DNA of 64,000 nucleotides. Source: a virus. Position 1 is the first letter of the stretch. Each line of letters opens with the position of its first letter. Below, piece by piece: positions 737-12,456 of this stretch. Below the pieces are notes generated by a model, which saw only the letters and a list, made by a program, of their open reading frames with translations, made no database searches and had not been told where the DNA came from. The position numbers were made by a program, and so were the translations under genes. The stretch is taken from the IMG/VR virus record IMGVR_UViG_3300036820_000002, positions 32,001 to 96,000 of that record; one strand, given 5' to 3'.

Positions 737-809
737 TCGGACGTAGCTCAACGGGGAGAGCTCTGGTCTCCAAAACCAGCGGTTGAGGGTTCGAGTCCCT
801 CCGTCCGGG
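737..809 (+). tRNA. tRNA-Trp(CCA)
   Basis: Cloverleaf; anticodon arm CTGGT-CTCCAAA-ACCAG; TTCGAGT T-loop. Confidence 0.9.
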
Positions 810-914
810 CGAGGCACCACCTGCGGGTGTACGTGCGTGATCATTGACAACTCCATCTGTTGACGGGCCGGATGACCAGGGGTGAACGATGCCGCTGTAC
901 CGTCCGGTCTCGTG

Positions 915-987
915 GGGGCCTTGGCGCAGCTGGCAGCGCGTCTCTTTTGCACGGAGAAGGTCGCGGGTTCGATCCCCGCAGGCTCCA
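915..987 (+). tRNA. tRNA-Ala(TGC)
   Basis: Cloverleaf; G3:U70; loop TTTGCAC. Confidence 0.92.
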
Positions 988-992
988 CGTCA

Positions 993-1066
993 GGGGGTTT
1001 GGCGCAGTCCGGAAGCGCGCTTCCTTCGCAAGGAAGAGGGCACGGGTCCGAATCCCGTAACCTCCA
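993..1066 (+). tRNA. tRNA-Ala(CGC)
   Basis: Cloverleaf; G3:U70; loop TTCGCAA; T-loop TCCGAAT. Confidence 0.9.
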
Positions 1067-1073
1067 CCTGTAC

Positions 1074-1147
1074 GGGGCTTTAGCGCAGCCTGGTAGCGCG
1101 TCTGCGTGGCACGCAGAAGGTCGCGGGTCCGAATCCCGCAAGCTCCA
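1074..1147 (+). tRNA. tRNA-Ala(GGC)
   Basis: Cloverleaf; G3:U70; loop GTGGCAC; T-loop TCCGAAT. Confidence 0.9.
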
Positions 1148-1292
1148 CGAAAGAAGGGCCTGGCGCTGTCGGGCGTCAGGACTAAACGACATCCGGCGGG
1201 GCCCCAGTGATTACAACGGGCCGGGCGGCAGTCAGGGTACTACTCATGAGGTCCGCGCTCCCGCTTACTGGTGGTACTGCTAGGAATAGCAT

Positions 1293-1366
1293 CGGGTTGT
1301 GGCGCAGCTTGGCAGCGCGCGTCGTTCGGGACGACGAGGTCGGCCGTTCAAATCGGCCCAGCCCGA
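1293..1366 (+). tRNA. tRNA-Pro(CGG)
   Basis: Cloverleaf; CGTCG-TTCGGGA-CGACG. Confidence 0.92.
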
Positions 1367-1449
1367 CTCTGAGGAGCTGCATACGGGGATGAGATAAGCC
1401 CTGGCTGTGTGTGGCGGTGAAAGTCCGTGCCAGTTCCTCAGTTTTTAAA

Positions 1450-1523
1450 CGGAGTATGGCGCAGCTTGGCAGCGCGCCCGGCTGGGGGCCGGGAGGTCGC
1501 GGTTTCGAATACCGCTACTCCGA
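1450..1523 (+). tRNA. tRNA-Pro(GGG)
   Basis: Cloverleaf; CCCGG-CTGGGGG-CCGGG. Confidence 0.9.
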
Positions 1524-1577
1524 CGAGCAGCCCGGACGCAGGCGCCGCCGGACGGCCTGGGCGGGCTGCCAGGTGTA

Positions 1578-1649
1578 CGGGGTGTAGCTCAGTGGCAGAG
1601 CACCGCGTTTGGGACGCGGGGGTCGTCCGTTCGGTCCGGACCACTCCGA
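1578..1649 (+). tRNA. tRNA-Pro(TGG)
   Basis: Cloverleaf; CCGCG-TTTGGGA-CGCGG; T-loop TTCGGTC. Confidence 0.88.
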
Positions 1650-1661
1650 CGTAAGTACTAT

Positions 1662-1733
1662 GGTCACCTAGCTGAGACGGATTAGCGGCTGCCTGAAAAG
1701 CAGCAGAGGCAGGGTCGCTACCTGCGGTGGCCA
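1662..1733 (+). tRNA. tRNA-Phe(GAA), atypical T-loop
   Basis: Cloverleaf; GCTGC-CTGAAAA-GCAGC; T-loop GTCGCTA. Confidence 0.8.
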
Positions 1734-2024
1734 CGGGGCTATAGGGAATCTCTTTGATGGTATCCTTGGCCTTTACCGGAAGACAGGACTAGAACCGTGG
1801 CCTCTGGCGGGGCCTTCGAAGAGAATTCCGGACACGATGAGGTCTTCCTTCCCTTACCGCGCTGAACACCTGTCTTCCCTCATAGTCGTGAGCCCCGGGT
1901 CCGCCTCTGCCTGCATGCCGCCCGGGGCACGGCCTGCCCCTGCCCTGACCTGGTCTCCGCGTACGGATAGCTTTATGGCATCCGTATGCAGTGGAGTATC
2001 CGTTTGAATCGGAAAGGGGCTCCT

Positions 2025-2095
2025 GCGGGTGTCGTCCAAAGGCAGGACAGCAGCCCTCCAAGCTGCTTACGCCGGTTCGACCCCGGTCACCCGCT
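2025..2095 (+). tRNA. tRNA-Gly(TCC)
   Basis: Cloverleaf; GCAGC-CCTCCAA-GCTGC; U73. Confidence 0.88.
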
Positions 2096-2107
2096 CTTAT
2101 CAGCCAT

Positions 2108-2181
2108 GGGCCGCTAACTCAAGTGCGAAGAGTACCGTCCTCTTAAGTCGGAAGTTCCGGGTTCGAGTCCCGGGCGGCTCA
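2108..2181 (+). tRNA. tRNA-Lys(CTT)
   Basis: Cloverleaf; loop CTCTTAA. Confidence 0.88.
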
Positions 2182-2224
2182 CTGCTAGTGTTAAGGAGGG
2201 CGGCTCACTGCTAGTGTTAAGGAG
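2173..2224. repeat. Perfect 26-bp tandem duplication
   Basis: GGCGGCTCACTGCTAGTGTTAAGGAG at 2173-2198 and 2199-2224. Confidence 0.95.
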
Positions 2225-2274
2225 AATGTCATGCACGCTCTCTATAAACAGGTCCCGGCCATCTGATAAACCGG

Positions 2275-2348
2275 GAGCCGCTAACTCAAATGCGAAGAGT
2301 ACCGATCTTTTAAATCGGGAGTTCAGGGTTCGAGTCCCTGGCGGCCCA
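2275..2348 (+). tRNA. tRNA-Lys(TTT)
   Basis: Cloverleaf; CCGAT-CTTTTAA-ATCGG; A2:C71 mismatch. Confidence 0.85.
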
Positions 2349-2359
2349 CAGGAGAGAAT

Positions 2360-2470
2360 ATGCCGCAGGTCATCTGCCCGGACTGCAAGGGCGGTGAAGA
2401 CGATAAGAAGGACTGCGAGCGGTGCCATGGCACCGGTACTATCTGGGTGGACAGCGGCTCCGGCTGGTAA
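2360..2470 (+). CDS. 36-aa zinc-finger peptide (DnaJ-type CxxCxG repeats)
   Basis: SD GGAG; MPQVICPDCKGGEDDKKDCERCHGTGTIWVDSGSGW* (below the ORF-track cutoff). Confidence 0.7.
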   Translation: MPQVICPDCKGGEDDKKDCERCHGTGTIWVDSGSGW

Positions 2471-2546
2471 GGGCGGGTAAGTCCAATCTGGTAGAGCTGG
2501 CCTGCTCAAAACAGGTCGTATGCGGGTTCGAGCCCCGCCCCGCCTA
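2471..2546 (+). tRNA. tRNA-Leu(CAA) with short variable loop
   Basis: Cloverleaf; GCCTG-CTCAAAA-CAGGT; variable region only CGTAT; A73. Confidence 0.8.
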
Positions 2547-2554
2547 CGGAAGAG

Positions 2555-2731
2555 ATGAATGGGATGCAGCGGCGGCAGACCCGGGGCCTGGCTGAGGGTG
2601 ATGTCTTCACCGGCTGGAAGCATGTGCTCTGCTACGTGCAGCGAGCGGGAGTGAAGAGCGGTATCAAGCGCGGTGCCCGGCGGCGGGAGCGGCGTGAGGG
2701 CAAGGCGCAGCTGCGGGAAGAACAGATATGA
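2555..2731 (+). CDS. 58-aa basic hypothetical protein
   Basis: MNGMQRRQTRG...KRGARRRERREGKAQLREEQI*; ATGA overlap with the next gene. Confidence 0.6.
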   Translation: MNGMQRRQTRGLAEGDVFTGWKHVLCYVQRAGVKSGIKRGARRRERREGKAQLREEQI

Positions 2732-3033
2732 AGAGAAGGCCGGTGGCGGCATTCGACGTGGACGGCACCCTCCTCCGGGACGACGACAGCCCCCGCGAGG
2801 AGATGGTCTCGTTGCTGATGGCACTGGTGCCGTACTGCAGGATCGTGGTCTGGTCCGGTTGCGGGAGCGATTATGCGGTGATGCAGGGACGGCGGCTCAG
2901 GCTCCCGGACGGCATCACCTACATGGCGAAGGCCGGCGGGTTCGCCGACCTCTGCTTTGATGACCAGGATGTTAACCTGGCGACCGTGAACATCATGGTC
3001 GCCGATGAGGAGCAATCCTCCGATCCCGCTTAG
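2728..3033 (+). CDS. Minimal HAD-superfamily phosphatase-like protein
   Basis: Motif I FDVDGTL, motif II VWSG, motif IV CFDD. Confidence 0.75.
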   Translation: MKRRPVAAFDVDGTLLRDDDSPREEMVSLLMALVPYCRIVVWSGCGSDYAVMQGRRLRLPDGITYMAKAGGFADLCFDDQDVNLATVNIMVADEEQSSDPA

Positions 3034-3096
3034 TTCAGCTGGTAGAACGCCGCCCTCTGAAGGCGGAAGTGCGAGGTTCGAAACCTTGAGCGGGAG
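3024..3096 (+). tRNA. tRNA-Gln(CTG)
   Basis: Cloverleaf; U1-A72; CCGCC-CTCTGAA-GGCGG. Confidence 0.9.
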
Positions 3097-3100
3097 CTGT

Positions 3101-3138
3101 GCCCCTGTAGCTCAGCCGGAAGAGCGGTCACCTCGTAC
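3101..3138 (+). pseudogene. 5' half of a tRNA-Thr(CGT)
   Basis: GCCCCTG-TA-GCTCAGCCGGAAGAGC-G-GTCAC-CTCGTAC, then no 3' half. Confidence 0.7.
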
Positions 3139-3147
3139 AGAAATCTT

Positions 3148-3221
3148 GCCGTCATAGCTCAGCTGGTCAGAGCGGCTGTCTCGTAAACAGCAGGTGGCAG
3201 GTTCGAGCCCTGCTGGCGGCT
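3148..3221 (+). tRNA. tRNA-Thr(CGT)
   Basis: Cloverleaf; GCTGT-CTCGTAA-ACAGC. Confidence 0.92.
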
Positions 3222-3260
3222 CTCCGTGGTCAGGGGCTCTGGCCGAAGAGAAGGAGAAGG

Positions 3261-3464
3261 ATGAGCGAACAGGACAGGACGGCGGCCGTTCACGCCTCCG
3301 TCGATGAGAAGGCGGCTGAGCTCGCGCTGATGGAGCACATCCGGGCGGCAGTGTACAGCCTGGAGGTTCCTATTTCCCAGGTCGTGCTCCGCTTCGAGGA
3401 GAAGCTCCGCGAGCTGCTCCCGGTGGCGCCGGGGGAGACCTTGAAGACGCCGGACAGCGAGTAG
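3261..3464 (+). CDS. Hypothetical protein
   Basis: SD AAGGAG; GC3-biased 67-aa ORF. Confidence 0.7.
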   Translation: MSEQDRTAAVHASVDEKAAELALMEHIRAAVYSLEVPISQVVLRFEEKLRELLPVAPGETLKTPDSE

Positions 3465-3465
3465 C

Positions 3466-3978
3466 ATGGGCCGTATCGCGGTAGCAATGGTCGCGGTGGC
3501 GGTGGCCGCCGGAGCCTGCTTCGCACCGGCTGCGGAAGCCAAGCCAGCTCCGTCGAGCCATGAGGTGGCTTATGATGATATCCGGGCAGCGGGAACCAGG
3601 GAATGTTTCGCGGTCTCGGGGCTGCGGGTGATAATCGCTACCTGCAATGTCCATGACGGTCATCAGGAATGGCTTCTCAACCGCTATGGAGCACTGCTGG
3701 AGATAGCCAGCTCGGAGTACCCCGGGCTGTGCCTCGGCAAGCCCGGCTACCCGGTGACGCTCAGTTCATGTGCGGACCTGAATGCTCACGGTTACCCGCT
3801 CCGCCTTGATGAGACCGCCAGGGAGACGATGACTGTGGAACTGGCGCGTACGGGTGACCTGTTGTCTTCCTGCCTCTCCGGCGACGAGGAGGCGATCGCC
3901 CGCTGGACGGTCAGGAACACTGCCGACTGCCTCCAGGAGCTTGTGCTTCCGGAATGGAAGCCGGTGAAGGACGCGTAA
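3466..3978 (+). CDS. Secreted protein, ricin-B/beta-trefoil-like (paralog 1)
   Basis: Signal peptide; repeated C..C..QxW pattern (HQEW, LCL). Confidence 0.6.
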   Translation: MGRIAVAMVAVAVAAGACFAPAAEAKPAPSSHEVAYDDIRAAGTRECFAVSGLRVIIATCNVHDGHQEWLLNRYGALLEIASSEYPGLCLGKPGYPVTLSSCADLNAHGYPLRLDETARETMTVELARTGDLLSSCLSGDEEAIARWTVRNTADCLQELVLPEWKPVKDA

Positions 3979-3992
3979 GGAGGGAGAAGGAG

Positions 3993-4217
3993 ATGGCCGT
4001 AGAGATTGCGCTGAAGCACAAGTACCGGATGGGCAGCACCGGCAAGAGGAATGCGTCCCGGGGCAATAACAGCGGTACGAACAAGCACCGGGGCGAGGAT
4101 AAGAACCGGCTTGCGTTCGCCCAGTCTCAGACCAGGGCAAACCAGCGGATGCTGGTTATGCTGCCGACCGGCAGGTTCCGGTGGGTGCTGGCGGCGGACT
4201 GGGGTGGCAGCCGCTAG
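3993..4217 (+). CDS. Basic hypothetical protein
   Basis: SD AAGGAG before ATG 3993. Confidence 0.6.
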   Translation: MAVEIALKHKYRMGSTGKRNASRGNNSGTNKHRGEDKNRLAFAQSQTRANQRMLVMLPTGRFRWVLAADWGGSR

Positions 4218-4251
4218 CGGGCGGCCTGGCGGGATATCAGGAAGATAACAT

Positions 4252-4336
4252 GCGCTCGTGGCGGAATGGCAGACGCGCAGCGTTGAGGTCGCTGTGCTCC
4301 GCGAGGGGCGTCCCGGTTCAAGTCCGGGCGGGCGCA
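4252..4336 (+). tRNA. tRNA-Leu(GAG)
   Basis: Cloverleaf with long variable arm; loop TTGAGGT. Confidence 0.92.
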
Positions 4337-4407
4337 CACCGTGTCTGGCTGGTCACGGTGAGATGATATGAGCAGGGCCCGTGGCGAGTGCCAGCTCGCT
4401 ACGGCAC

Positions 4408-4481
4408 GCCGCCTTAGCTCAGTCTGGCAGAGCAACCGCCCTGTAAGCGGTAGGTCACCCGTTCGAGGCGGGTAGGCGGCT
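4408..4481 (+). tRNA. tRNA-Thr(TGT)
   Basis: Cloverleaf; ACCGC-CCTGTAA-GCGGT. Confidence 0.88.
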
Positions 4482-4510
4482 CACGAGGTAATCCCAGGGG
4501 AAGGGGACGA

Positions 4511-4654
4511 ATGGATTTCAGTGACGCGCTGAGCACTATGCGGCAGGGCGGCAGGGTACGGCGGCGGTTGTGGTCACAGATATGGCCCGCGCACCTATGG
4601 CTGGAGATCGTGGCGAACTGGGACCTCCTGGCCAGTGACTGGGAGGCAGAGTAA
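4511..4654 (+). CDS. Miniature DUF2829/Tad2-like protein (47 aa)
   Basis: MDFSDALSTMRQGGRVRRRLW...DLLASDW matches both conserved ends of DUF2829 as I recall them. Confidence 0.6.
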   Translation: MDFSDALSTMRQGGRVRRRLWSQIWPAHLWLEIVANWDLLASDWEAE

Positions 4655-4794
4655 TCAGCCGGCGGGATTGGACGACCCCGAAGGCGCATGCCCGCAGGCC
4701 GCACCATAAAGCCATGCACAGCGGCAAGAAAGGGAGAGGTGGGGATAAGAAGCTGAAGGAAGTCAAGCGCCTGCTCGCGCAGGGAGCAGTGTAA

Positions 4795-4868
4795 TGCCCG
4801 CTGGGGTAACCGGCAAGCCCACCGGGTTTTGGTCTCGGGTGTTCCAGGTTCGAATCCTGGGCGGGCAG
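4795..4868 (+). tRNA. tRNA-Gln(TTG)
   Basis: Cloverleaf; U1-A72; loop TTTTGGT. Confidence 0.9.
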
Positions 4869-4965
4869 CGAGGAGATAGGGTTCTGCGCACGGAGATGAT
4901 TCTCCTCTGTCTAAACATGGCATAGTGCCTGGGTTACGGTACCCGGTGTCTAAAAGCCGCTGTAA

Positions 4966-5038
4966 GCCTCTCTAGCTCATCCGGCAGAGCGTGGCCATGG
5001 TAAGGTCAAGGCGAGCGGTTCGAGTCCGCTGGGAGGCT
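4966..5038 (+). tRNA. tRNA-Thr(GGT)
   Basis: Cloverleaf; loop ATGGTAA. Confidence 0.9.
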
Positions 5039-5054
5039 CACCGGGATACGTCTG

Positions 5055-5150
5055 GCACCGTGGCGTGTCCCTGCCGGTCCCACGAAGATGCTGACCTTCA
5101 CGGAGGGCCGGTAACCAGCCAGCCCTGGTCAGCGGGCGCTGGCACGGTGC
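5055..5150 (+). ncRNA. Candidate three-way-junction RNA with complementary loops
   Basis: Closing stem GCACCGTG/CACGGTGC; two hairpins carrying GCTGACC and GGTCAGC. Confidence 0.5.
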
Positions 5151-5154
5151 ACAC

Positions 5155-5226
5155 GCGGTTGTGGCGCAGTGGTAGCGCACCACCTTGCCAAGGTGGGGGT
5201 CACGGGTCCGAATCCCGTCAGCCGCT
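5155..5226 (+). tRNA. tRNA-Gly(GCC)
   Basis: Cloverleaf; CCACC-TTGCCAA-GGTGG; T-loop TCCGAAT. Confidence 0.9.
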
Positions 5227-5287
5227 CGGAGGGACAACGCTGGGGGCTGACTTACCCAAGGAGATCGTCACTGGTGTCCCTTCTCAT

Positions 5288-5359
5288 GCGGCCATAATTC
5301 AATGGCAGAATGCCACCTTCCCATGGTGGAGACGAGGGTTCGACTTCCCTCTGGCCGCT
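5288..5359 (+). tRNA. tRNA-Gly(CCC)
   Basis: Cloverleaf; loop TTCCCAT; 8-nt T-loop. Confidence 0.85.
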
Positions 5360-5392
5360 CTGTTCCTTACGCCGAGACGCGTGAGGAACCCC

Positions 5393-5477
5393 GGGCGAGT
5401 GGTGGAATGGTAGACACGCATGCCTCAGGAGTATGTGTCTTAACGACGTGGGGGTTCGACTCCCCCCTCGCCTACCA
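5393..5477 (+). tRNA. tRNA-Leu(CAG)
   Basis: Cloverleaf with long variable arm; encoded CCA. Confidence 0.92.
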
Positions 5478-5557
5478 GCAGGAAGCTTTTATGATAGAAC
5501 CCGGATTCCCGGGTACTGTCTGACGGACTCCATAACCCGGGCTTCCTGCTGTTTTCC

Positions 5558-5646
5558 GGAGTGGTCGCCTAGTCCGGCCCATGGCGCTCGACTGCTAATC
5601 GAGTGGGGTCTCACCGCCCTCGGGAGTTCAAATCTCCCCCGCTCCG
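5558..5646 (+). tRNA. tRNA-Ser(GCT)
   Basis: Cloverleaf with long variable arm; CTCGA-CTGCTAA-TCGAG; G73. Confidence 0.92.
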
Positions 5647-5677
5647 CCCTGTTTCAGTGAACTGAAGGAAGAGATAC

Positions 5678-6253
5678 GTGATGATACGGTCGGCTGTTCT
5701 CGCAGCAGCAGCTGCCATGACGGCAGCGATTGCCCTGGCTGTCCCTGCTGGTGCGGTGACGGGACCTCCGGCCGGCTCCCGGGGAACCGGGGTGATCTCG
5801 GTGAGGACGAGCAAGGAGAAGCTCTGCCTGACCGCCCTGGGCAGCGGGGTGGTCGTGGCCAAGCCGTGCGTATCCAGGCTCAGCGACGAAGGGGACGGGC
5901 AGGCGTGGTTGCTGTCCCGTTATGACGGCTTCCTGGCCGTGAGGTCAGTCCGCGAGTCAGGTGAGTGCCTGGGGTCGCGTGGCGGGACGGCTTCCGCTGT
6001 GCTGGTGAGCTGCACGGCGAGCAATGAGGGCGGTGACGCTCTCCGCTACGTGGAACTGGGTGACGACGCGTGTCCCGGTATCGCTGCCACCTCAGATTGC
6101 GCCGAGATCACGCTGGTTAACGGGCGTAAGCTGACCGCCTGGGTCGCGGCCCGGGGCCATCGTGACTCCTATGCCGTCGTGACCTGGGATGAGGATCCGG
6201 GAGGCATGAACGTCCGGTTTACCTGGGCGGTGCCGGGGTGGCATCATGATTAG
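5678..6253 (+). CDS. Secreted protein, ricin-B/beta-trefoil-like (paralog 2)
   Basis: Signal peptide; LCL..C..GQAW, ECL..LVSC repeats. Confidence 0.65.
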   Translation: MMIRSAVLAAAAAMTAAIALAVPAGAVTGPPAGSRGTGVISVRTSKEKLCLTALGSGVVVAKPCVSRLSDEGDGQAWLLSRYDGFLAVRSVRESGECLGSRGGTASAVLVSCTASNEGGDALRYVELGDDACPGIAATSDCAEITLVNGRKLTAWVAARGHRDSYAVVTWDEDPGGMNVRFTWAVPGWHHD

Positions 6254-6262
6254 CAGGAGCTG

Positions 6263-6445
6263 GTGATAGTCTCTGACCAGAGAATGAATTGCGACAGGAA
6301 TTGCGGCAAGGACCTGTACCGGGAGTGCTTTGACTGCTGGGACGGGTACCATGTCTACGCTACGACACCGGGGAGCAGGATCAGGTGCCCTCCGTGTGAC
6401 CAGAAGAAGACCGGGAAGGTGGGCTTAGAGGCAGCCATCCTCTAA
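6263..6445 (+). CDS. Small Cys-rich protein
   Basis: SD AGGAG; CDRNC, CFDC, CPPC; 3' end overlaps the rRNA-mimic RNA. Confidence 0.45.
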   Translation: MIVSDQRMNCDRNCGKDLYRECFDCWDGYHVYATTPGSRIRCPPCDQKKTGKVGLEAAIL

Positions 6446-6533
6446 GGAGTGAGAGTACCGGCGTGAGGCGTCGGCGGAGCGCCTGGCCTCACCGGGCAGC
6501 TCCGGTCTCTTCGGCGTAACAGCACACCCGGTC
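6409..6533 (+). ncRNA. 23S rRNA GTPase-associated-centre (uL11-binding H43-H44) mimic with a 63-nt hairpin insert
   Basis: GACCGGGAAGGTGGGCTTAGAGGCAGCCATCCTCTAAGGAGT[insert]GCGTAACAGCACACCCGGTC resembles 23S nt ~1051-1108; no flanking rRNA. Confidence 0.8.
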
Positions 6534-6584
6534 AGTCCTGATGGTGTACAGTGAACAGGGAAAAGAAAGAACAGTGAGGAACGG

Positions 6585-7055
6585 ATGAGACTCGCCGAGG
6601 CGCTGCGTGAGCGCGCCGATACCCAGAAGAAGCTCGCGCAGCTGAGTCACCGCATCAGCGAGAACGCCCGGGTCCATGAGGGGGATACCCCCGACGAGGC
6701 CCCCCTGGATCTCCTGGCTGAGGCCAGGGTGAGGATGATCACGCTGGAAGAGCTGATCCGGCGCATCAACGCGACGAACGCCGCGACTCCGCTGACCCCG
6801 GAGATGACGCTCACCGCCGCGATGGCCCGCCGCGAGGCGCTGACCAACCTGCAGAAGTTCCTCACTGCCGCCGCCGATGCTGCCGCCGGCGGTACTGCTG
6901 ACCGGATGTGGGGCCGCCGCCGCGCGACTGAGCTCCGGGAGGTGGCGGCCTTGCCGGTGAAGGACCTCCGCGCCGAAGCGGACCGGGTGTCCGGGGAGCT
7001 GAGGAAGCTGTCCATGAGCATCGAGGAAATGAACTGGAAGACGGAACTGATGTAG
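6585..7055 (+). CDS. DIP1984-family helical/coiled-coil protein
   Basis: MRLAEAL.ERAD...ARVHEGDTP...RINATN...NWKTEL termini typical of the family. Confidence 0.8.
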   Translation: MRLAEALRERADTQKKLAQLSHRISENARVHEGDTPDEAPLDLLAEARVRMITLEELIRRINATNAATPLTPEMTLTAAMARREALTNLQKFLTAAADAAAGGTADRMWGRRRATELREVAALPVKDLRAEADRVSGELRKLSMSIEEMNWKTELM

Positions 7056-7056
7056 A

Positions 7057-7284
7057 GGGGAAGACGGTAGCTGCTCGTCACCCGTCCGGGGTGAGTACGC
7101 AATCCTCGCAAGATTCATGGTCTTGCATCACAGCACATGCGCGGGGCCGCATGACAATCATTACCAGTCAGCCCAGCATCTATGCAGCAGTCAGCGGCGG
7201 AAGCCGTTACCAGTTATTTTTATCACCATGTGCTAACCGGACAGGATTACTGATGGCAGCGAGGGCGGGCCAGGGGAATTCCCC
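7057..7284 (+). ncRNA. Candidate structured RNA downstream of the DIP1984 gene
   Basis: Nested helices GGGGAA/TTCCCC, GCTGC/GCAGC, CGTCA/TGATG, GTCCGG/CCGGAC, AGCACATG/CATGTGCT. Confidence 0.55.
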
Positions 7285-7660
7285 CCAGCAGAAGCCTTTC
7301 TTGAGCATACGGCTCAAGGATTGTGAGGTGCAGACGTTCCAGTCCGGCGGACCGGGCGGCCAGCACCAGAATCATTCCAATACCGGGGTCCGGATCATCC
7401 ACCGGGCGTCCGGGGCCCGTGGGGAGTCGCGGGAGGAACGTAGCCAGCTGCTGAACAAGAAGGCGGCGTTCCGGCGGATGACAGAACATGTGATGTTCCG
7501 GGTGTGGGTGAACCGGATGATCTTCTATGCCGGGAAATCCCCGGAGGAGAGGGTGAAGGAAGACCTGGTACCGCAGAATCTGCGCACGGAAGCCCGTCGC
7601 GGGAACCGGTGGGTACCTTATGCGGCAGAAGGGAATGATCATGGCGGAACCGCAGGATGA
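7253..7660 (+). CDS. Peptide chain release factor-like GGQ protein (RF-1 domain only; ArfB/PrfH-like)
   Basis: SGGPGGQHQN..TGVRIIH..SG....SREERSQLLNK; start chosen at ATG 7253 after AGGA. Confidence 0.85.
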   Translation: MAARAGQGNSPQQKPFLSIRLKDCEVQTFQSGGPGGQHQNHSNTGVRIIHRASGARGESREERSQLLNKKAAFRRMTEHVMFRVWVNRMIFYAGKSPEERVKEDLVPQNLRTEARRGNRWVPYAAEGNDHGGTAG

Positions 7661-7751
7661 CCAGGCTGACGAGGAAATCATCGAGGAGCTCGTCAAGGGC
7701 TATTCCGGTGACGGCCTGTTCCGCGAGCAGAACTCGCCGCACCCGAAGTAA
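7641..7751 (+). CDS. 36-aa acidic peptide
   Basis: MAEPQDDQADEEIIEELVKGYSGDGLFREQNSPHPK*; GC3-biased. Confidence 0.45.
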   Translation: MAEPQDDQADEEIIEELVKGYSGDGLFREQNSPHPK

Positions 7752-7798
7752 TGGAGATGAACGGGCAGGAGCGCACCTCTCACGGAGGGGTGCGCCGG

Positions 7799-7870
7799 AC
7801 GCGGGTAGCTCAGCGGCAGAGCGACGCTCAGATGAAGCGGAGGCCGGTGGTCCGAGTCCACCCCCGCGTA
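7799..7870 (+). tRNA. Degenerate tRNA-Ile(GAT)-like gene
   Basis: Acceptor ACGCGGG/CCCGCGT, D arm and T arm intact; anticodon loop CAGATGA (A33) and A27:G43 mismatch. Confidence 0.65.
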
Positions 7871-8410
7871 CTGATCCGCCTCAGGGAAGAGCTGGGGCTG
7901 CCGGGATGCCCGTACGTGATCCGGTGGCGCCTTCAGGTCCCCGGGGGGTCGGTCCGGCTGCATCACTGGCTGGGCCCTGATGATGACCGTGCTCACCATG
8001 ATCATCCGTGGTGGTTCGTGACCCTGGTACTGCGCGGCGGCTACACCGACCGCAGTCCTGGGGGGACCGAGCGCTTGCGGGCGGGATCGGTGCGGTACCG
8101 CCCGGCTCTGTACCGGCATACGGTGGTTCCTGATCCCGGCGGCGCCTGGACGCTGTTGGTTACCGGTCCCCGGGTGCGGGACTGGGGATTTTGGCCGGGG
8201 AAGTTCGTGAAGGCTAACAAGTGGTTCTTCCGGTACGGTCATCACCCGTGTTTCGAGGATTCGCCTAGCGGCTTAGGGCGCACGCCCGGAAAGCGTGTTG
8301 GGGGTGACCCCCCCTCGCGAGTTCGAATCTCGCATCCTCGGCGATGGAGACGTGGCACGAGTGGCTTAAGGCTCCGGTCCCGAAAACCGGCGGGTGTAAC
8401 AGCCCCGTGA
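7832..8410 (+). CDS. Cupin/dioxygenase-like protein; start uncertain (7751 or 7832)
   Basis: LHHW.GPDDDRAHHDHPWWFVTLVLRGGY...H.V...WTL.VTGP...WGF cupin motif; frame continues through tRNA genes. Confidence 0.7.
   Translation: MKRRPVVRVHPRVLIRLREELGLPGCPYVIRWRLQVPGGSVRLHHWLGPDDDRAHHDHPWWFVTLVLRGGYTDRSPGGTERLRAGSVRYRPALYRHTVVPDPGGAWTLLVTGPRVRDWGFWPGKFVKANKWFFRYGHHPCFEDSPSGLGRTPGKRVGGDPPSRVRISHPRRWRRGTSGLRLRSRKPAGVTAP
8254..8341 (+). tRNA. tRNA-Ser(GGA)
   Basis: Long variable arm; CACGC-CCGGAAA-GCGTG; G73. Confidence 0.88.
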
Positions 8411-8434
8411 GTTCGAATCTCACCGTCTCCTCCA
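8346..8434 (+). tRNA. tRNA-Ser(CGA)
   Basis: Long variable arm; CCGGT-CCCGAAA-ACCGG; encoded CCA. Confidence 0.88.
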
Positions 8435-8435
8435 A

Positions 8436-8510
8436 GGGCTGGTAACTCAGCAGGTCAGAGTACCCGTCTGATAAGCGGGAAGCCGGCAGGTTCAAATCCT
8501 CCCCAGCCCA
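8436..8510 (+). tRNA. tRNA-Ile(GAT)
   Basis: Cloverleaf; loop CTGATAA; imperfect T stem. Confidence 0.85.
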
Positions 8511-8511
8511 C

Positions 8512-8586
8512 AGGCCGGTAACTCAAGTTGGTCAGAGTGCCATTCTTATAAGATGGGAGTCACGGGTTCGAACCCCGTCCGGCCTA
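8512..8586 (+). tRNA. tRNA-Ile(TAT)
   Basis: Cloverleaf; CCATT-CTTATAA-GATGG; A73. Confidence 0.85.
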
Positions 8587-8594
8587 CCGGAGCC

Positions 8595-8855
8595 ATGATG
8601 AAGCGCAAGGATGATAACAGCTGCCGGTGTGATCCGCCGCCTTTTACCGGAGGGTGCCGGTACCGGCTGTGCCGGTACGGTCACTGCGCGGAGTACGTGT
8701 GCTTGCGCTGCGATCTGTTCAGCTGGGGATACGGCCCTATGCTGTGCAAGTGTGATGTCCCTAAGCCCAGGCTCTTCCTTTACCCGGACATGGACGTGAA
8801 ACCGCACGTAGCCCTCAAGTCGTCAGCACGCCGGCGGCGGGTAAGGAAATGGTGA
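8595..8855 (+). CDS. Cys-rich hypothetical protein
   Basis: SD GGAG; multiple Cys clusters. Confidence 0.55.
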   Translation: MMKRKDDNSCRCDPPPFTGGCRYRLCRYGHCAEYVCLRCDLFSWGYGPMLCKCDVPKPRLFLYPDMDVKPHVALKSSARRRRVRKW

Positions 8856-9127
8856 ACCGCCAGCCGCTGGCAGCATTCATCCAGGAAGGGTGCTACCGTA
8901 GCTGGCACCGCCACGGGAAACGGGCGAAGCACCGTTCTGTACGGCGTGAGCGGATGCTGGCCCGCACGGAAGCCAGGGAGGCCGTGATGAGCGAACCTGA
9001 GAGCGGATATGATATCTGGCCGTACGGTGATGACAACATGCCGGCGGTCGGTGACCCTGATGATGATTATGAATGGGTAGAGGACCTGCTCACCGCCGAG
9101 CGGGCCAGCCGTTCCGGGCCCCTGTAG
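8849..9127 (+). CDS. Hypothetical protein (basic N-terminus, acidic C-terminus)
   Basis: SD AAGGA; stop TAG lies inside tRNA-Arg(TCT). Confidence 0.55.
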   Translation: MVNRQPLAAFIQEGCYRSWHRHGKRAKHRSVRRERMLARTEAREAVMSEPESGYDIWPYGDDNMPAVGDPDDDYEWVEDLLTAERASRSGPL

Positions 9128-9190
9128 CTTAACGGAGAAAGCAGGGAGCTTCTAACTCCCGGGATGCGCGTTCGAGTCGTGTCAGGGGCG
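9118..9190 (+). tRNA. tRNA-Arg(TCT)
   Basis: Cloverleaf; GGGAG-CTTCTAA-CTCCC. Confidence 0.88.
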
Positions 9191-9192
9191 CT

Positions 9193-9265
9193 GGTCCCTT
9201 GGGGTAATGCGCAGCCCGCCGCCCTCTCATGGCGGAGATTGCCGGTTCGAATCCGGCAGGGATCA
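9193..9265 (+). tRNA. tRNA-Glu(CTC)
   Basis: Cloverleaf; CCGCC-CTCTCAT-GGCGG. Confidence 0.88.
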
Positions 9266-9299
9266 CTGATGTACCAGGAAAAGAAGAGAAAGGTCCAGC

Positions 9300-9881
9300 A
9301 TGAAGAAGATGCTCGCCTGTGCCGCCGCGCTGGCAGGCGCGGCGGCAGGAACGGCAGTGATGGCCGTCCCTGTGCACGCGGTCACGGCTGCTAATGACGG
9401 GGCTGGCCGGATCACCATGACCGTCAGCGGTGTCACCCGGTGCCTGGCAGGTAATCCGGAGACCAAGGCGGTTACCCTCGGCAGCTGCTCGGACGCGCAG
9501 TCCTGGGCGATCACTGCTTCAGCCGGGGTCATGTACGTCGACTGGATCAGGAACCCGCTGCTCTGCCTCGGCGTGAAGCCAGCCAGCGGCAGTGCGCTGC
9601 TGGTCCGGTGCGATGCCCGTGATGTTACCAGCGCTTACCTGGGATATGATTTCCGGAACTCCAGGGACGCGGTCATCACATCCCCCGGTCCGAGTGCCTT
9701 CGAAGAGATCCTGCCTCCCGGGTTTGTTACCCGGGCCCGGCTGACAGTGGTCGTGCCGGAACAGGTCACGGCTACCACGGTCCTCCCGGTGCTCTGGGCT
9801 GGCCGTAACTTCATCGCTGAACCGGGATCGGCCCAGGACGTATGGACGCTGCCTAAGCTCAGCCCGACCCGCAAGGACTAG
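9300..9881 (+). CDS. Secreted protein, ricin-B/beta-trefoil-like (paralog 3)
   Basis: SD AAAGG; signal peptide; RCL..VTLGSC..AQSW, LCL..LVRC. Confidence 0.65.
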   Translation: MKKMLACAAALAGAAAGTAVMAVPVHAVTAANDGAGRITMTVSGVTRCLAGNPETKAVTLGSCSDAQSWAITASAGVMYVDWIRNPLLCLGVKPASGSALLVRCDARDVTSAYLGYDFRNSRDAVITSPGPSAFEEILPPGFVTRARLTVVVPEQVTATTVLPVLWAGRNFIAEPGSAQDVWTLPKLSPTRKD

Positions 9882-9903
9882 CTGCCTGGCCGCCGGGGGT
9901 AAT

Positions 9904-9986
9904 GCCGTCGTTGCTCTGATGGTGAGGGGCCGCCGCCCTTTCATGGCGGATTAGCGACGGGGGTTCGATTCCCCCCGGCGGCACCA
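9904..9986 (+). tRNA. tRNA-Glu(TTC), enlarged D and variable regions
   Basis: CCGCC-CTTTCAT-GGCGG; 9-nt variable region; encoded CCA. Confidence 0.75.
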
Positions 9987-10004
9987 GGATAAGGAAGGAA
10001 GCCG

Positions 10005-10418
10005 TTGATCTGCAGGCACAGCGATGAAGGGAGAGCGGAGGCAGACGCCTTGCTCGCCGAAGTGAAGCAGCGACTCGGCGGCCGGGATGGGCCGGTCACC
10101 GACGGCACCCTGCTTAGCTGCGTGATATATAGCCTGAACCAGGACTTCGGTGCGCAGATCACCGAGATCATGTGTGATCTGTGGGCGGTAGTCTGCGCCT
10201 CTACGTACCGGGATTCGGATGACCCCTTCGAGGTGAGCATCTACTGCGATAACGTGGAAGACGGGATCGCCGCCGCCTGGAAGGCGTTCGCGGACAGGAA
10301 GGACGGAAATGCTGCTGCTGGAGCGGATGGCCCTGGAATCGGACTGGCAGGAGACCTGCCCGGTGAAGGTGGCGGAGCTGATGACGTTCATGACTCCCAT
10401 CGCACCAGTGCTGGGTAA
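10005..10418 (+). CDS. Hypothetical protein
   Basis: SD AAGGAAGG before TTG; GC3 bias. Confidence 0.55.
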   Translation: MICRHSDEGRAEADALLAEVKQRLGGRDGPVTDGTLLSCVIYSLNQDFGAQITEIMCDLWAVVCASTYRDSDDPFEVSIYCDNVEDGIAAAWKAFADRKDGNAAAGADGPGIGLAGDLPGEGGGADDVHDSHRTSAG

Positions 10419-10472
10419 CCTGGAAGACAGCACCGGGGAGCCGCGAATCTGGCGGTATCGGGTGTGCGGCAT

Positions 10473-10546
10473 GCCGCCGTGGTGAAGTCGGAAATTCACG
10501 GTGTCCTCATAAGGCACAGAGCCCTGTTCGAGCCAGGGCGGCGGTA
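10473..10546 (+). tRNA. tRNA(CAT), elongator Met or Ile2
   Basis: Cloverleaf; GTGTC-CTCATAA-GGCAC. Confidence 0.82.
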
Positions 10547-10555
10547 CGAAATCGC

Positions 10556-10584
10556 TTGACGGCACGGGATCTGCCGGCGATAAT
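10556..10584 (+). promoter_or_regulatory. Internal promoter before tRNA-fMet
   Basis: TTGACG-N17-GATAAT. Confidence 0.6.
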
Positions 10585-10595
10585 GGATCCTACGA

Positions 10596-10672
10596 CGCGG
10601 GGTGGAACAGTTCGGTAGTTCGCTGGGCTCATAACCCAGAAGTCGCAGGTTCAAATCCTGCCCCCGCTACCA
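10596..10672 (+). tRNA. Initiator tRNA-fMet(CAT)
   Basis: C1:U72 mismatch; three G-C pairs in the anticodon stem; encoded CCA. Confidence 0.95.
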
Positions 10673-10739
10673 GAGGCACCTGGCACAGTCAGGAGTCGAC
10701 CACGGGCTGCTGCTTACCGTGGCCTCAGAAGCAGCGTAA

Positions 10740-10813
10740 TCCCCGATAGCTCAACTGGCGGTAGCGTCCGGCTGTTAACCGGAAGGTTCCTGGTTCGATC
10801 CCAGGCCGGGGAG
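10740..10813 (+). tRNA. tRNA-Asn(GTT)
   Basis: Cloverleaf; TCCGG-CTGTTAA-CCGGA. Confidence 0.9.
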
Positions 10814-10917
10814 CGCTAGTCCGGGAAACGAGGGCCAGTGGCCTGCGGCTGCCTGCGCCGCGAGCATGAAGCAGGACAGTATGAGGGGTTCCCCGGTCAG
10901 CCGCCTCATGCGCCTAT

Positions 10918-10992
10918 GGTCTTGTAGAGCAGCCCGGAGTGCTCGCCACCCTGTCACGGTGGAGGTCGCGGGTCCGAATCCCGCCAGGACCG
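10918..10992 (+). tRNA. tRNA-Asp(GTC)
   Basis: Cloverleaf; CCACC-CTGTCAC-GGTGG; G73; T-loop TCCGAAT. Confidence 0.9.
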
Positions 10993-11008
10993 CATAGAGT
11001 GGAACGAT

Positions 11009-11275
11009 ATGACCGCCAGCAGGAAAAAGCAGATTACCCTGTACCGGATAACCCGGATCAAGTACATCCGCAACCTGGCTCTGGGCTGGAAAGCGGACTC
11101 GGTGAGTATCGTCTACTGCTCCACGAAGGCCAGCCTTACTAATGCCCGCAAGGAACTGATCGTACTTAACGGGCATCAGTGGGCACGCGGGCAAGGCAAC
11201 CCTCGCATCCGGTATGAACTGATAGCAGAGTGGTGCCCGATGCCGGAGTTCCAGCCACTGGACCTGGGCGCGTAG
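11009..11275 (+). CDS. Hypothetical protein
   Basis: Fills the spacer between tRNAs; stop TAG is tRNA-Val positions 8-10. Confidence 0.55.
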   Translation: MTASRKKQITLYRITRIKYIRNLALGWKADSVSIVYCSTKASLTNARKELIVLNGHQWARGQGNPRIRYELIAEWCPMPEFQPLDLGA

Positions 11276-11338
11276 CTCAGCGGTATGAGTGCTCGCCTGA
11301 CGCGCGAGAAGGCGGCAGTTCGATCCTGCCCGTGCCCA
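11266..11338 (+). tRNA. tRNA-Val(GAC)
   Basis: Cloverleaf; CTCGC-CTGACGC-GCGAG. Confidence 0.88.
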
Positions 11339-11391
11339 CCGGGGTTACTGATCAGGACTGAGGTATCTCTCCTGATTTCTGGCCCTGCCAG

Positions 11392-11465
11392 GCCCCCATA
11401 GCTCAGCGGAATAGAGCGGCCGGCTACGAACCGGCAGGCCGGGAGTTCGAGTCTCCCTGGGGGTA
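11392..11465 (+). tRNA. tRNA-Arg(ACG)
   Basis: Cloverleaf; GCCGG-CTACGAA-CCGGC. Confidence 0.92.
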
Positions 11466-11466
11466 C

Positions 11467-11685
11467 GTGATATGGACTGATATCGACCCGGCGGACGCCG
11501 TGGACATTGATTGCCGGGAGCGCCTGGATCTTGACCCGCCGCTCAACGAGAACCAGGAGGCATGCCCGTGGCCCTGGGACCCGCAGCAGCTCAAGGGTGC
11601 TCCGCTGGGCCAGTATCACTGCCCGTACTGCGGGGCGATGGTGATGGCAGGTCTTCCCCATCCGGATTACCGGAGGGATCTCTAA
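11467..11685 (+). CDS. Small CxxC protein
   Basis: CPWPWDPQQL..APLGQYHCPYCG; GC3 bias. Confidence 0.6.
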   Translation: MIWTDIDPADAVDIDCRERLDLDPPLNENQEACPWPWDPQQLKGAPLGQYHCPYCGAMVMAGLPHPDYRRDL

Positions 11686-11702
11686 GGGAAAAAAAGAAGC
11701 AA

Positions 11703-11773
11703 GGTCGGCTAGCTCAATGGAAGAGCGAGGCGTTTACACCGCCAGGACGAGGGTCCGATTCCTTCGCTGACTA
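11703..11773 (+). tRNA. tRNA-Val(TAC)
   Basis: Cloverleaf; GGCG-TTTACAC-CGCC; T-loop TCCGATT. Confidence 0.82.
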
Positions 11774-11775
11774 CC

Positions 11776-11848
11776 GGGTCGTGATCCAAGTGGCTGAGGA
11801 AGCGGTTTGTGGAACCGTTACTGGCGGGTTCGAATCCCGTACGACCCT
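11776..11848 (+). tRNA. tRNA-His(GTG), atypical acceptor end
   Basis: GCGGT-TTGTGGA-ACCGT; GGGTCGT/ACGACCC stem. Confidence 0.75.
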
Positions 11849-11861
11849 CCCGTCTGATCTC

Positions 11862-11943
11862 GCCAGGGTGTCCGAGCGGTCAAAAGAGGCGCTCTGTAAA
11901 AGCGTTGGCCCTGCCTTCCCAGGTTCGAATCCTGGTCCTGGCA
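11862..11943 (+). tRNA. tRNA-Tyr(GTA)
   Basis: Long variable arm; loop CTGTAAA. Confidence 0.9.
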
Positions 11944-11997
11944 CGTGAAATACGAGTTCTTTCATTGACGTAATGGACGATCTGTACAGTCCTGTAT

Positions 11998-12070
11998 GCT
12001 CCCATGGTAAAGGGGATATTACGCTGGTTTCCGAAGCCAGAGATCGCCTGTTCGAATCAGGCTGGGAGCA
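11998..12070 (+). tRNA. tRNA-Arg(CCG)
   Basis: Cloverleaf; loop TTCCGAA. Confidence 0.88.
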
Positions 12071-12075
12071 CGCCT

Positions 12076-12148
12076 GACCCCGTGCTGAAGCGGCTAACAG
12101 AGCTGCCTGCAAAGCAGCCATTCGCGGGTTCGAGTCCCGCCGGGGTCT
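12076..12148 (+). tRNA. tRNA-Cys(GCA)
   Basis: Cloverleaf; GCTGC-CTGCAAA-GCAGC; U73. Confidence 0.88.
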
Positions 12149-12171
12149 CGGAGAAAAGAGAGGAAGTCATC

Positions 12172-12369
12172 ATGCTGCTCAAGAGCCAGCAGCGGGTATA
12201 CCTGCTCGCCGCACCCTCTAATGCGGGTCATGTGTCCCGTATCCGGGGTGACCAGTTCACTGTCACCTATGACAGTCCCGGACGGCCCAAGGGCCATCCC
12301 CGGGTCCGGGTGACCTACCAGGAGCGCCAGGTGTCCCAGTTCGGCACCGGCAATCTCGGCCAGCCCTGA
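12172..12369 (+). CDS. Small hypothetical protein
   Basis: SD GAGGA before ATG 12172; stop TGA inside the tRNA-Arg(CCT) acceptor stem. Confidence 0.6.
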   Translation: MLLKSQQRVYLLAAPSNAGHVSRIRGDQFTVTYDSPGRPKGHPRVRVTYQERQVSQFGTGNLGQP

Positions 12370-12434
12370 TAGCTCAGAGGACAGAGCGGGGCTCTCCTAA
12401 GGCCTGCGCGGGGGTTCGAGTCCCTCTCAGGGCA
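12363..12434 (+). tRNA. tRNA-Arg(CCT)
   Basis: Cloverleaf; loop CTCCTAA. Confidence 0.9.
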
Positions 12435-12456
12435 CGTTACGCTAGGACCGGAAGAG

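Follow-up and report, generated by a model that had tools for sequence, protein, structure and literature searches.

Background

Mimicry of ribosomal RNA (rRNA) has so far been known from the cis leaders of ribosomal-protein operons. RNAs that tie up proteins by acting as mimics or sponges are otherwise familiar from 6S RNA, CsrB/RsmZ, the tRNA-like Y RNAs and RNA anti-CRISPRs, none of which, to our knowledge, copies a ribosomal functional centre. In E. coli, expression of the L11-binding piece of rRNA on its own (Van Dyke et al. 2002) is said to titrate L11.

The ribosomal site concerned is the GTPase-associated centre of 23S rRNA (the tip of H42, H43 and H44; positions 1051-1108, E. coli numbering). 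In the available text of the articles cited by PMC identifier here and below, the C-terminal domain of uL11 is described as contacting positions 1058-60, 1062-65, 1075-83 and 1088, and thiostrepton as binding at A1067 and A1095 (PMC1802607), whilst uL10 reads a kink-turn and uL1 represses rplK-rplA (PMC10931766). That portion of PMC10931766 names no mRNA mimic of the uL11 site. The U1061A substitution stabilises the free domain in Mg2+, and G1061 is found in most eukaryotes (PMC6239185).

A copy of the GTPase-associated centre in a phage genome

The window analysed here, a stretch of 64,000 nucleotides, corresponds to bases 32001-96000 of a complete phage genome of 130,268 bp with direct terminal repeats (IMG/VR record IMGVR_UViG_3300036820_000002). 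Judging from its GC content of 65% and its domain content (DUF1707, DUF6085, DUF6197 and Rpf-like domains, which we take to be linked to the actinobacterial lineage), this phage probably infects an actinobacterium.

Alignment to the reference 23S rRNA gene, rrlB of E. coli K-12, revealed that window positions 6409-6533 (125 nt, + strand) are a copy of 23S rRNA 1049-1110, with 6409-6450 equivalent to 1049-1090, 6514-6533 equivalent to 1091-1110, and 63 nt lying between 1090 and 1091. Identity to rrlB was 41/58 over 1051-1108 and 38/48 over 1057-1104. An earlier note on this DNA had proposed that the equivalents of A1067 and A1095 are kept, and the alignment places these at A6427 and A6518, respectively. 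Its compensatory substitutions G1058-C1080 and U1090-A1101 were likewise correctly read; the alignment adds a compensated tertiary swap, C1082·G1086, and the pairing of a closing helix over 1049-1055/1104-1110. Further core differences from E. coli are A1056, G1061, G1070, G1089 and C1097. The parts of the element and its immediate surroundings, with the evidence for each (element counts refer to the family described below), are as follows:

6409..6533, + strand: the whole element, a self-closed copy of the uL11-binding domain with an insert (rrlB alignment; family of 175 distinct elements)
6409..6415, + strand: 5' strand of the closing helix, equivalent to 1049-1055 and pairing with 6527-6533; a plain helix with no kink-turn 42 (each 1049-1055 pair is canonical in 85-99% of 162 elements, as against G/A mismatches at 1047-1050 in rRNA)
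6417..6441, + strand: H43 equivalent (1057-1081), bearing the face for the uL11 C-terminal domain; loop tip A6427 = A1067; G1058-C1080, G1061, G1070 (alignment, covariation and the interface list in the available text of PMC1802607)
6442..6446, + strand: triloop at the junction, C1082-U-A-A-G1086, carrying a tertiary C·G pair where bacterial rRNA has U·A (covariation)
6447..6450, + strand: H44 5' strand, G1087-A1088-G1089-U1090, the partner of A1088 being U1060 at 6420 (U1060·A1088 in 161/162 elements)
6451..6509, + strand: variable insert domain of 59 nt, closed by GAGA/UCUC (6451-54/6506-09), with predicted hairpins at 6458-6474 and 6475-6504 (fold prediction)
6510..6513, + strand: 4-nt linker UUCG, family consensus UUUG (UUUG 134, UUUA 24 and UUCG 3 of 175)
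6514..6526, + strand: H44 3' part (1091-1103), loop GUAACA, A6518 = A1095, family-specific A1101 at 6524 (A1101 in 160/162 elements, U in 51/51 rRNAs)
6527..6533, + strand: 3' strand of the closing helix, 1104-1110 (pairing)
6284..6445, + strand: small Cys-rich open reading frame (ORF) whose tail runs into the RNA (context; overlap incidental)
6585..7055, + strand: DUF6847 (DIP1984) gene, 52 nt downstream and outside the element (PF20935, E=3e-40)
737..12435, + strand: array of 42 tRNA genes on one strand (context)

The 5' half of the element scored 26/34 against E. coli 1057-1090, whilst the next-best site in the 130-kb genome scored 20 and shuffled genomes (n=30) reached 19-21. A word-7 BLASTN search with the complete E. 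coli 23S sequence found no other 23S-like stretch in the whole genome, its sole match being 30 nt at the element, and the Rfam LSU model (RF02541) had no match in the genome. The element is hence not embedded in continuous 23S sequence, in agreement with the note's observation that no other rRNA flanks it. At gathering score, Rfam models matched only tRNAs in the window; below threshold, six chance matches were retrieved between 5650 and 7800, none of them on the element, and neither leader nor intron models of Rfam matched it. That no named family covers the element, as had also been suggested, is consistent with these searches. A 42-nt BLASTN query had no match in E. coli genomes, and an exact 29-nt pattern retrieved no near-identical copy from viral contigs.

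Family members and their distribution

A total of 281 pattern matches in viral contigs, cultured phages and genomes yielded 175 distinct elements with both halves; left out were 25 matches without a 3' half that could be used (fragments of genuine rRNA, flanks cut short, chance matches and locus L020). Two pattern scans of IMG/VR each gave at least 119 loci, in stored stretches estimated at ~260 and ~360. A scan of GTDB genomes gave 34 loci, comprising 25 elements, seven true rRNAs and two loci without a 3' half, from records titled as Bacillota, Bacteroidota, Pseudomonadota, Actinomycetota, Chloroflexota, Nitrospira and Planctomycetota, mostly metagenome bins. A BLASTN search with the region found matches in intergenic DNA of cultured phages, and whole elements were confirmed in Pseudomonas phages UNO-G1W1, pf16 and Milchi, Xanthomonas phages XacN1 and XaC1, Serratia phage BF, Cronobacter phage GAP32 and Aeromonas phage 4_4572. 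The hosts of all these confirmed cultured carriers are Gram-negative Gammaproteobacteria. Distribution of the family is patchy, the pattern being present in 0/46 records picked for a tRNA-Met-type motif.

There were several unusual instances among the matches. One phage contig (L063, positions 1501 and 1819) harboured two different elements in tandem, 318 nt apart. The divergent copy L020:1478-1555 is an insert-less, self-closed domain with C1087-G1102 and C1090-G1101 and no rRNA flanks, a natural minimal form. A match in Paenibacillus phage Pd_22F (L557, MZ092003.1 near 83980) was rejected as a family member, being plain 23S rRNA; this stretch is unannotated and close to the record end, and is possibly host DNA. 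Amongst true 23S rRNAs, an unusual H44 pair, A1092-U1099 or G1092-C1099, was seen in L134, L139, L140, L145, L149, L150 and L153 (several archaea, Chloroflexota and others).

A full-text literature search covering titles and abstract starts outside subscription journals returned no description of a phage rRNA mimic. Three RNA-discovery papers make no mention of one in the parts available, namely the main text of bioRxiv 10.64898/2026.09.22.753630 and of PMC5737381, and the text and six of nine supplement files of PMC10690425; the motif could stand unnamed in candidate lists of such papers. To judge from the databases and papers searched, in none of which it was found, an RNA of this kind, carried by a phage and reproducing a functional centre of the ribosome on its own, would be new.

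Covariation and fold

Pairing statistics were compiled from the 162 elements in standard register, the 13 of the 175 with a junction one base shorter being left out. The secondary structure of H43 and H44 and the closing helix are present both in the window's element and in the family. Position pair 1057-1081 is A-U in 133 elements and C-G in 24, and 1058-1080 occurs as all four Watson-Crick types, with 99% paired. Tertiary contacts vary in concert as well: 1082·1086 is U·A in 76 elements, C·G in 55, the window's included, and A·U in 17 (148/162), whereas it is U·A in 106/107 rRNAs; U1060·A1088 is retained in the window. The uL10 site, kink-turn 42, has been replaced by a plain helix, with 1047-1050 canonical in 71-88% of elements as against 0-44% of rRNA; the straight closing helix is also found in L431, a syntenic relative of the window's locus.

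In an alignment of 40 elements, from which pairs outside 1053-1106 were left out owing to an alignment gap, 98.5% of 758 cells were paired and two-sided changes numbered 131, compared with 31 after shuffling; at 1082·1086, 39/40 were paired and 21 had changed on both sides. The covariation score, which ignores kinship, was 0.47, slid controls giving 0.08-0.15. When pairs or pair types were counted instead, these 40 elements did no better than shuffled ones (151 and 160 of 500).

Nearest-neighbour folding, applied to the GC-rich window copy, gave -46.6 for the rRNA-like drawing and -61.2 kcal/mol for the minimum free energy structure, which keeps only the closing helix, amounting to ~15 kcal/mol against the rRNA-like interior. 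Because the energy model prefers another interior, the rRNA-like fold rests on covariation and not on energy. We regard selection for this fold as almost certain, and the structure of the element, as reconstructed from aligned sequences, as secure. The finding of family homologues with covariation upholds the proposal of the earlier note that this is a structurally selected RNA as opposed to rRNA debris.

The insert

The 63 nt between 1090 and 1091 had been described as a single hairpin inserted into H44. The length is correct, though the segment comprises the 59-nt domain and the 4-nt UUCG linker, with two hairpins predicted (-34.1 kcal/mol) in preference to one long hairpin (-29.1 kcal/mol). 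Across the family, inserts range from 27 to 400 nt (median 134); only 10/175 are of 63 nt or less, so the 125-nt copy in the window is among the shortest. The three outermost insert-closing pairs are canonical in 99, 98 and 93% of the 175 elements when the linker is taken as 4 nt, versus 47-82% with 3 or 5 nt.

Insert sequences are far less constant than the core. The core is common to the window and L431, whereas their inserts, 63 and 113 nt long, are unrelated, from which we infer that inserts turn over whilst the core stays. The start of the window's insert was matched as a pattern at four loci, one of them an element (L432, on the contig of L051) with a different insert. Resemblance to other parts of 23S rRNA was at chance level (7 matches versus 7 in a reversed control). 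A recurrent module, GGYACCCCG-loop-GGUAAGG, was observed in the inserts of L001, L002, L003, L012, L016, L127, L147 and L559, and is absent from that of the window.

It could be supposed that the insert is the working part of the RNA, displayed as cargo of a ribonucleoprotein in which host uL11 serves as a protective handle clamping the RNA ends together. An insert is present in all 175 elements (although the counting rule required one), its closing helix and 4-nt linker are conserved, and words recur within it, GGUAAGG occurring in 44/175. Nonetheless, the wide range of lengths, the shortest inserts being plain hairpins, the unrelated inserts of the window and L431, the existence of the insert-less non-rRNA copy L020 and the chance-level likeness to 23S rRNA render such a scaffold unlikely.

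Positions kept and positions relaxed

Loop positions were compared with 51 rRNAs from two phyla, found with 241-nt queries and not chosen by loop sequence; from 58 rRNA loci, three (one unpublished genome and two duplicate operons) and four off the ungapped register (three with 1-nt insertions, one truncated) had been removed. These replaced, for loop statistics, a set of 107 metagenome rRNAs, because the search pattern had fixed the loops of the latter. For A1067 and G1068, the 103 elements retrieved with a pattern that did not constrain this loop were used. All four loop letters that contact translation factors are present in the window's copy but relaxed family-wide: A1067 in 86/103 elements (p=8e-4), G1068 in 75/103 (p=4e-6), A1095 in 147/162 (p=0.024) and A1096 in 131/162 (p=1.5e-4), each against 51/51 rRNAs in Fisher tests that ignore relatedness. 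Both loops are of the rRNA type in 39/103 elements, compared with 50/51 rRNAs.

Other positions are held. G1059 and U1060, fixed by no search pattern, are invariant (162/162), A1088 is present in 161/162, and the structural loop letters G1093, U1094 and A1098 are kept, these being partly fixed by the patterns or the 3' matching rule. Since the search patterns fixed 1062-64, 1071-75, 1077, 1079 and 1084-85, constancy there is no evidence. The family signature comprises G1089-U1090, A1101 and a frequent purine at position 1061, which is A or G in 73/162 elements compared with U in 51/51 rRNAs. Of the 17 uL11-interface nucleotides listed in the available text of PMC1802607, the window retains 14, the other three being compensated swaps.

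Conservation of this kind fits selection for an autonomous fold with a uL11 face, rather than for contacts with factors, antibiotics or loop enzymes. As the conserved nucleotides also define the tertiary fold, any ligand requiring the fold would fit the pattern, and fold and uL11 face largely coincide.

The relaxed loop tips argue against antibiotic and loop-cutting-toxin decoys, both of which the earlier note had entertained. A sink for thiopeptide antibiotics, protecting the ribosomes of the infected host, would find some encouragement in a possibly actinobacterial host and in the window's A1067 and A1095, the thiostrepton pocket in the text of PMC1802607. However, A1067 or A1095 is missing in 24/103 loop-unbiased elements and the cultured carriers infect Gram-negative hosts. 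Such hosts are largely closed to thiostrepton, and we consider this role very improbable.

Genomic context

Flanks of at least 1.4 kb on each side were available for 89 of the 174 other elements, and 53 of these had a tRNA or tmRNA gene within 1.4 kb. All 266 neighbouring tRNA and tmRNA genes were located on the element's strand, with 31/89 elements having one within 60 nt. No neighbour was conserved, the largest neighbour-protein cluster covering 7/89 loci. The window's RNA lies 760 and 1266 nt from its nearest tRNAs, and a scan for promoters and terminators there found no match. Among sequencing runs queried with 5600-7700, no RNA run was listed as containing it, a result with no bearing on expression.

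Genes for uL11 were absent from the source genome and from all 50 large carrier records, many of which are incomplete. Other genes were compared with 14 control records, chosen by a tRNA-Met-type motif and no shorter than 60 kb, a small set with shorter records than the 50 carriers: MazG was found in 8/50 carriers versus 2/14 controls (p=1.0), HD_4 in 9/50 versus 0/14 (p=0.19), RF-1-domain genes in 7/50 versus 0/14 (p=0.33) and RtcB in 9/50 versus 0/14 (not significant), whilst DUF6847 exceeded the cut-off in 0/50 carriers. None of these five was an obligate partner among the 50 carriers.

The 5' half of the window's element is not free of coding DNA: it overlaps the tail of the 53-codon Cys-rich ORF, whose 11 final codons, together with the stop TAA (6443-45, equivalent to U1083-A1085), fall within the RNA. 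The syntenic relative L431 was found through this ORF and has a largely matching tRNA order; its homologue is 57% identical and stops at a TAG before the RNA, the last 11 codons in the window being a read-through. At L431 a tRNA-Ser follows within ~30 nt of the closing helix, with no DUF6847 or release-factor gene between. As L431 lacks both at the RNA, the ORF overlap and the DUF6847 neighbour are incidental. A conserved coding overlap was thus rejected, also by the finding that only 7/88 elements have 50 or more open codons before the element's TAA, as was a cis role for DUF6847.

Several other features of the region were recorded. The DUF6847 gene and the ~195 nt of folded non-coding DNA that follow it, with short CAG/CA-spaced motifs (predicted -60.8 kcal/mol), occupy 6585-7252 and appear inserted relative to L431. 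A small RF-1-domain (GGQ) protein is encoded within the tRNA array at 7253-7660 (PF00472, E=2e-15; phrog_3122), ~0.7 kb downstream of the RNA, its likely start being ATG 7253 rather than GTG 7091. Small proteins encoded among the tRNAs at 3466-3978 and 5678-6253 have weak, below-cut-off matches to beta-trefoil lectins (PF00652). A tRNA nucleotidyltransferase gene lies just upstream of the tRNA array, with RlaP, MazG-like, HD and HAD_SAK_2-like genes elsewhere in the genome (L398:12636-14054, L397:5015-5701, L397:8530-9596; genome 28.6-30 kb, 5-10 kb).

Explanations that dispense with a trans-acting RNA altogether, whether rRNA debris picked up by the phage, a fragment of rRNA with an intron in it or a leader acting in cis on DUF6847, were already largely refuted and are scarcely credible. 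Group I splice sites have U before the intron and G at its end, and the insert likewise comes after a U and in most members has a terminal G; the element also ends 52 nt before the DUF6847 start. However, 26/175 inserts end in A, the two ends of the insert are paired to one another, and a group I core would need far more than 63 nt; on these grounds, and in the absence of an Rfam intron match, a group I intron or rRNA intervening sequence was rejected. Debris is opposed by family letters unseen in the 51 rRNAs, such as A1101, by tertiary covariation beyond the bacterial range and by the failure of elements to track rRNA of the same assembly where this was seen (L137 versus L411). A leader is opposed by the DUF6847 distribution given above.

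Position among tRNAs raises a further alternative, that of a decoy for a host defence enzyme or sensor (a nuclease, modifying enzyme or infection sensor) that reads the folded GTPase centre, comparable to phage tRNAs that replace cleaved host tRNAs. The tRNA nucleotidyltransferase, RlaP and RF-1-domain protein of the source genome and the patchy distribution of the family would suit such a decoy, but the exposed loops usually read by such enzymes are the least conserved parts, and RtcB is present in only 9/50 carriers. We know of no defence toxin that targets the H43/H44 site of the GTPase centre. For Tsr, the one known H43 enzyme, the available text of PMC2719339 gives a requirement for U1066, G1068 and A1069, with loss of activity on substitution of G1068 and a weakening by U1061A, and the family often changes both 1068 and 1061. 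A defence decoy consequently appears rather unlikely.

A putative sponge of host uL11

Among the ligands proposed earlier, uL11 would be the best fitting, and from the conserved positions it is probably the ligand of the element. The reading that we favour, at a probability of roughly 0.4, is that the RNA acts in trans as a sponge of host uL11 and thereby dampens Rel/(p)ppGpp signalling. Sequence and covariation show that its two ends together reconstitute the closing helix, H43, the junction with its triloop and H44, tertiary pairs included; the insert is attached at the 1090/1091 step through a helix of its own and the UUYG linker. The RNA would be transcribed with the tRNA array and persist in self-closed form, and would then fold and bind the uL11 C-terminal domain, as suggested by the retention of the uL11 face and fold and by the loss of the uL10 kink-turn and relaxation of the factor-facing loop tips. 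Its ligand would be host-made, since carriers encode no uL11 and have no constant neighbour.

Most speculatively, free or exchanging uL11 would be drawn off, so that ribosomes would go on translating yet be poor activators of Rel, a state that would suit a phage with its own tRNA set. In available text, uL11 is required for RelA activation and its deletion is viable in B. subtilis (PMC13448080). The host would not sense the loss, because rplK-rplA is repressed by uL1 and not by uL11. Direct binding of Rel to the free RNA, as the earlier note had raised, finds no support; any influence on Rel would have to run through uL11.

Several observations weigh against the sponge. Within mature ribosomes uL11 may not exchange within one infection, and the pronounced growth defect of uL11-depleted B. 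subtilis (PMC8373112, available text) is a cost to the phage. A pure sponge leaves unexplained the structured insert in nearly all copies, and the known anti-ppGpp gene families MazG and HD_4 are not clearly enriched in carriers. The distance to the tRNAs and the lack of a promoter or terminator match would count against release as a separate RNA.

The same titration of uL11 could instead serve to shift termination or rescue, with less RF1/UAG termination and less RqcH quality control, in place of lower (p)ppGpp. Limiting L11 reportedly alters stop-codon-specific termination (Van Dyke 2002), an RF-1-domain gene lies ~0.7 kb downstream of the window's RNA, and a CUA-anticodon tRNA lies within 1.4 kb at four of the 89 loci. 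In the available text of PMC8373112, uL11 is needed for RqcH recruitment. RF-1-domain genes, however, are found in only 7/50 carriers (p=0.33 against controls), and the source genome uses all three stops (TGA 108, TAA 36 and TAG 27 in 171 mechanically picked ORFs) without a suppressor tRNA. We hold this purpose to be less probable than either the scaffold or the defence decoy.

In its broadest form, the uL11 sponge reading holds that a single ancient RNA gene is shared by phages across many bacterial phyla and that its product, a reconstruction of the uL11-binding centre apart from the ribosome, strips or re-routes host uL11, a proposal that we advance tentatively from sequence comparison. If true, the RNA would be the first example from nature of a mimic that acts in trans in the likeness of a functional site of the ribosome, and would amount to an RNA switch opposing the stringent response. 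A free RNA whose likeness to such a centre extends as far as tertiary covariation, and which moves between unrelated phages, would be a new viral action on host translation. The proposal is directly testable in the cultured carriers pf16 (Pseudomonas putida) and UNO-G1W1 (P. fluorescens), whose laboratory hosts are harmless, and decades of binding assays exist for the 58-nt domain. The family can also be read as mutagenesis carried out by nature, showing which letters of the domain are needed to fold and to bind protein when contacts with translation factors no longer constrain it.

Comparison with known systems

The element resembles the 23S GTPase-associated centre in its secondary structure, its tertiary pairs U1060·A1088 and 1082·1086, its triple-forming G1071/C1072 with 1091-1100/1092-1099, and its 14/17 uL11-interface letters, the rest compensated. 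It differs in having no rRNA flanks, a plain closing helix in place of kink-turn 42, an insert at 1090/1091 with a UUYG linker, U1090-A1101 and, across the family, relaxed loop tips, and in being phage-encoded in tRNA arrays.

With the leaders of ribosomal-protein operons (the uL1 site of rplK-rplA and the L10(L12)4 site of rplJ-rplL in the available text of PMC10931766) it has in common that a non-ribosomal RNA copies an rRNA protein site. Those leaders, however, are cis elements in host mRNA exerting feedback control, whereas the phage element adjoins no ribosomal-protein gene, DUF6847 lying downstream, is without the uL10 kink-turn and reproduces the site of uL11. A ribosomal-protein leader was rejected, there being no operon of a bound ribosomal protein downstream and no Rfam leader match. 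The GOLLD and ROOL RNAs are structured, of unassigned role, near tRNAs and sometimes in phages, but are much larger and not rRNA-like (PMC5737381, available text), and no Rfam match to the element was obtained.

The likeness to 6S RNA, CsrB/RsmZ, Y RNAs and RNA anti-CRISPRs is limited to the proposed principle of a trans RNA copying a natural ligand, with no relation in sequence or structure. The engineered free L11-binding fragment (Van Dyke et al. 2002), reported to titrate L11, is artificial; the phage element would be its natural, evolved counterpart.
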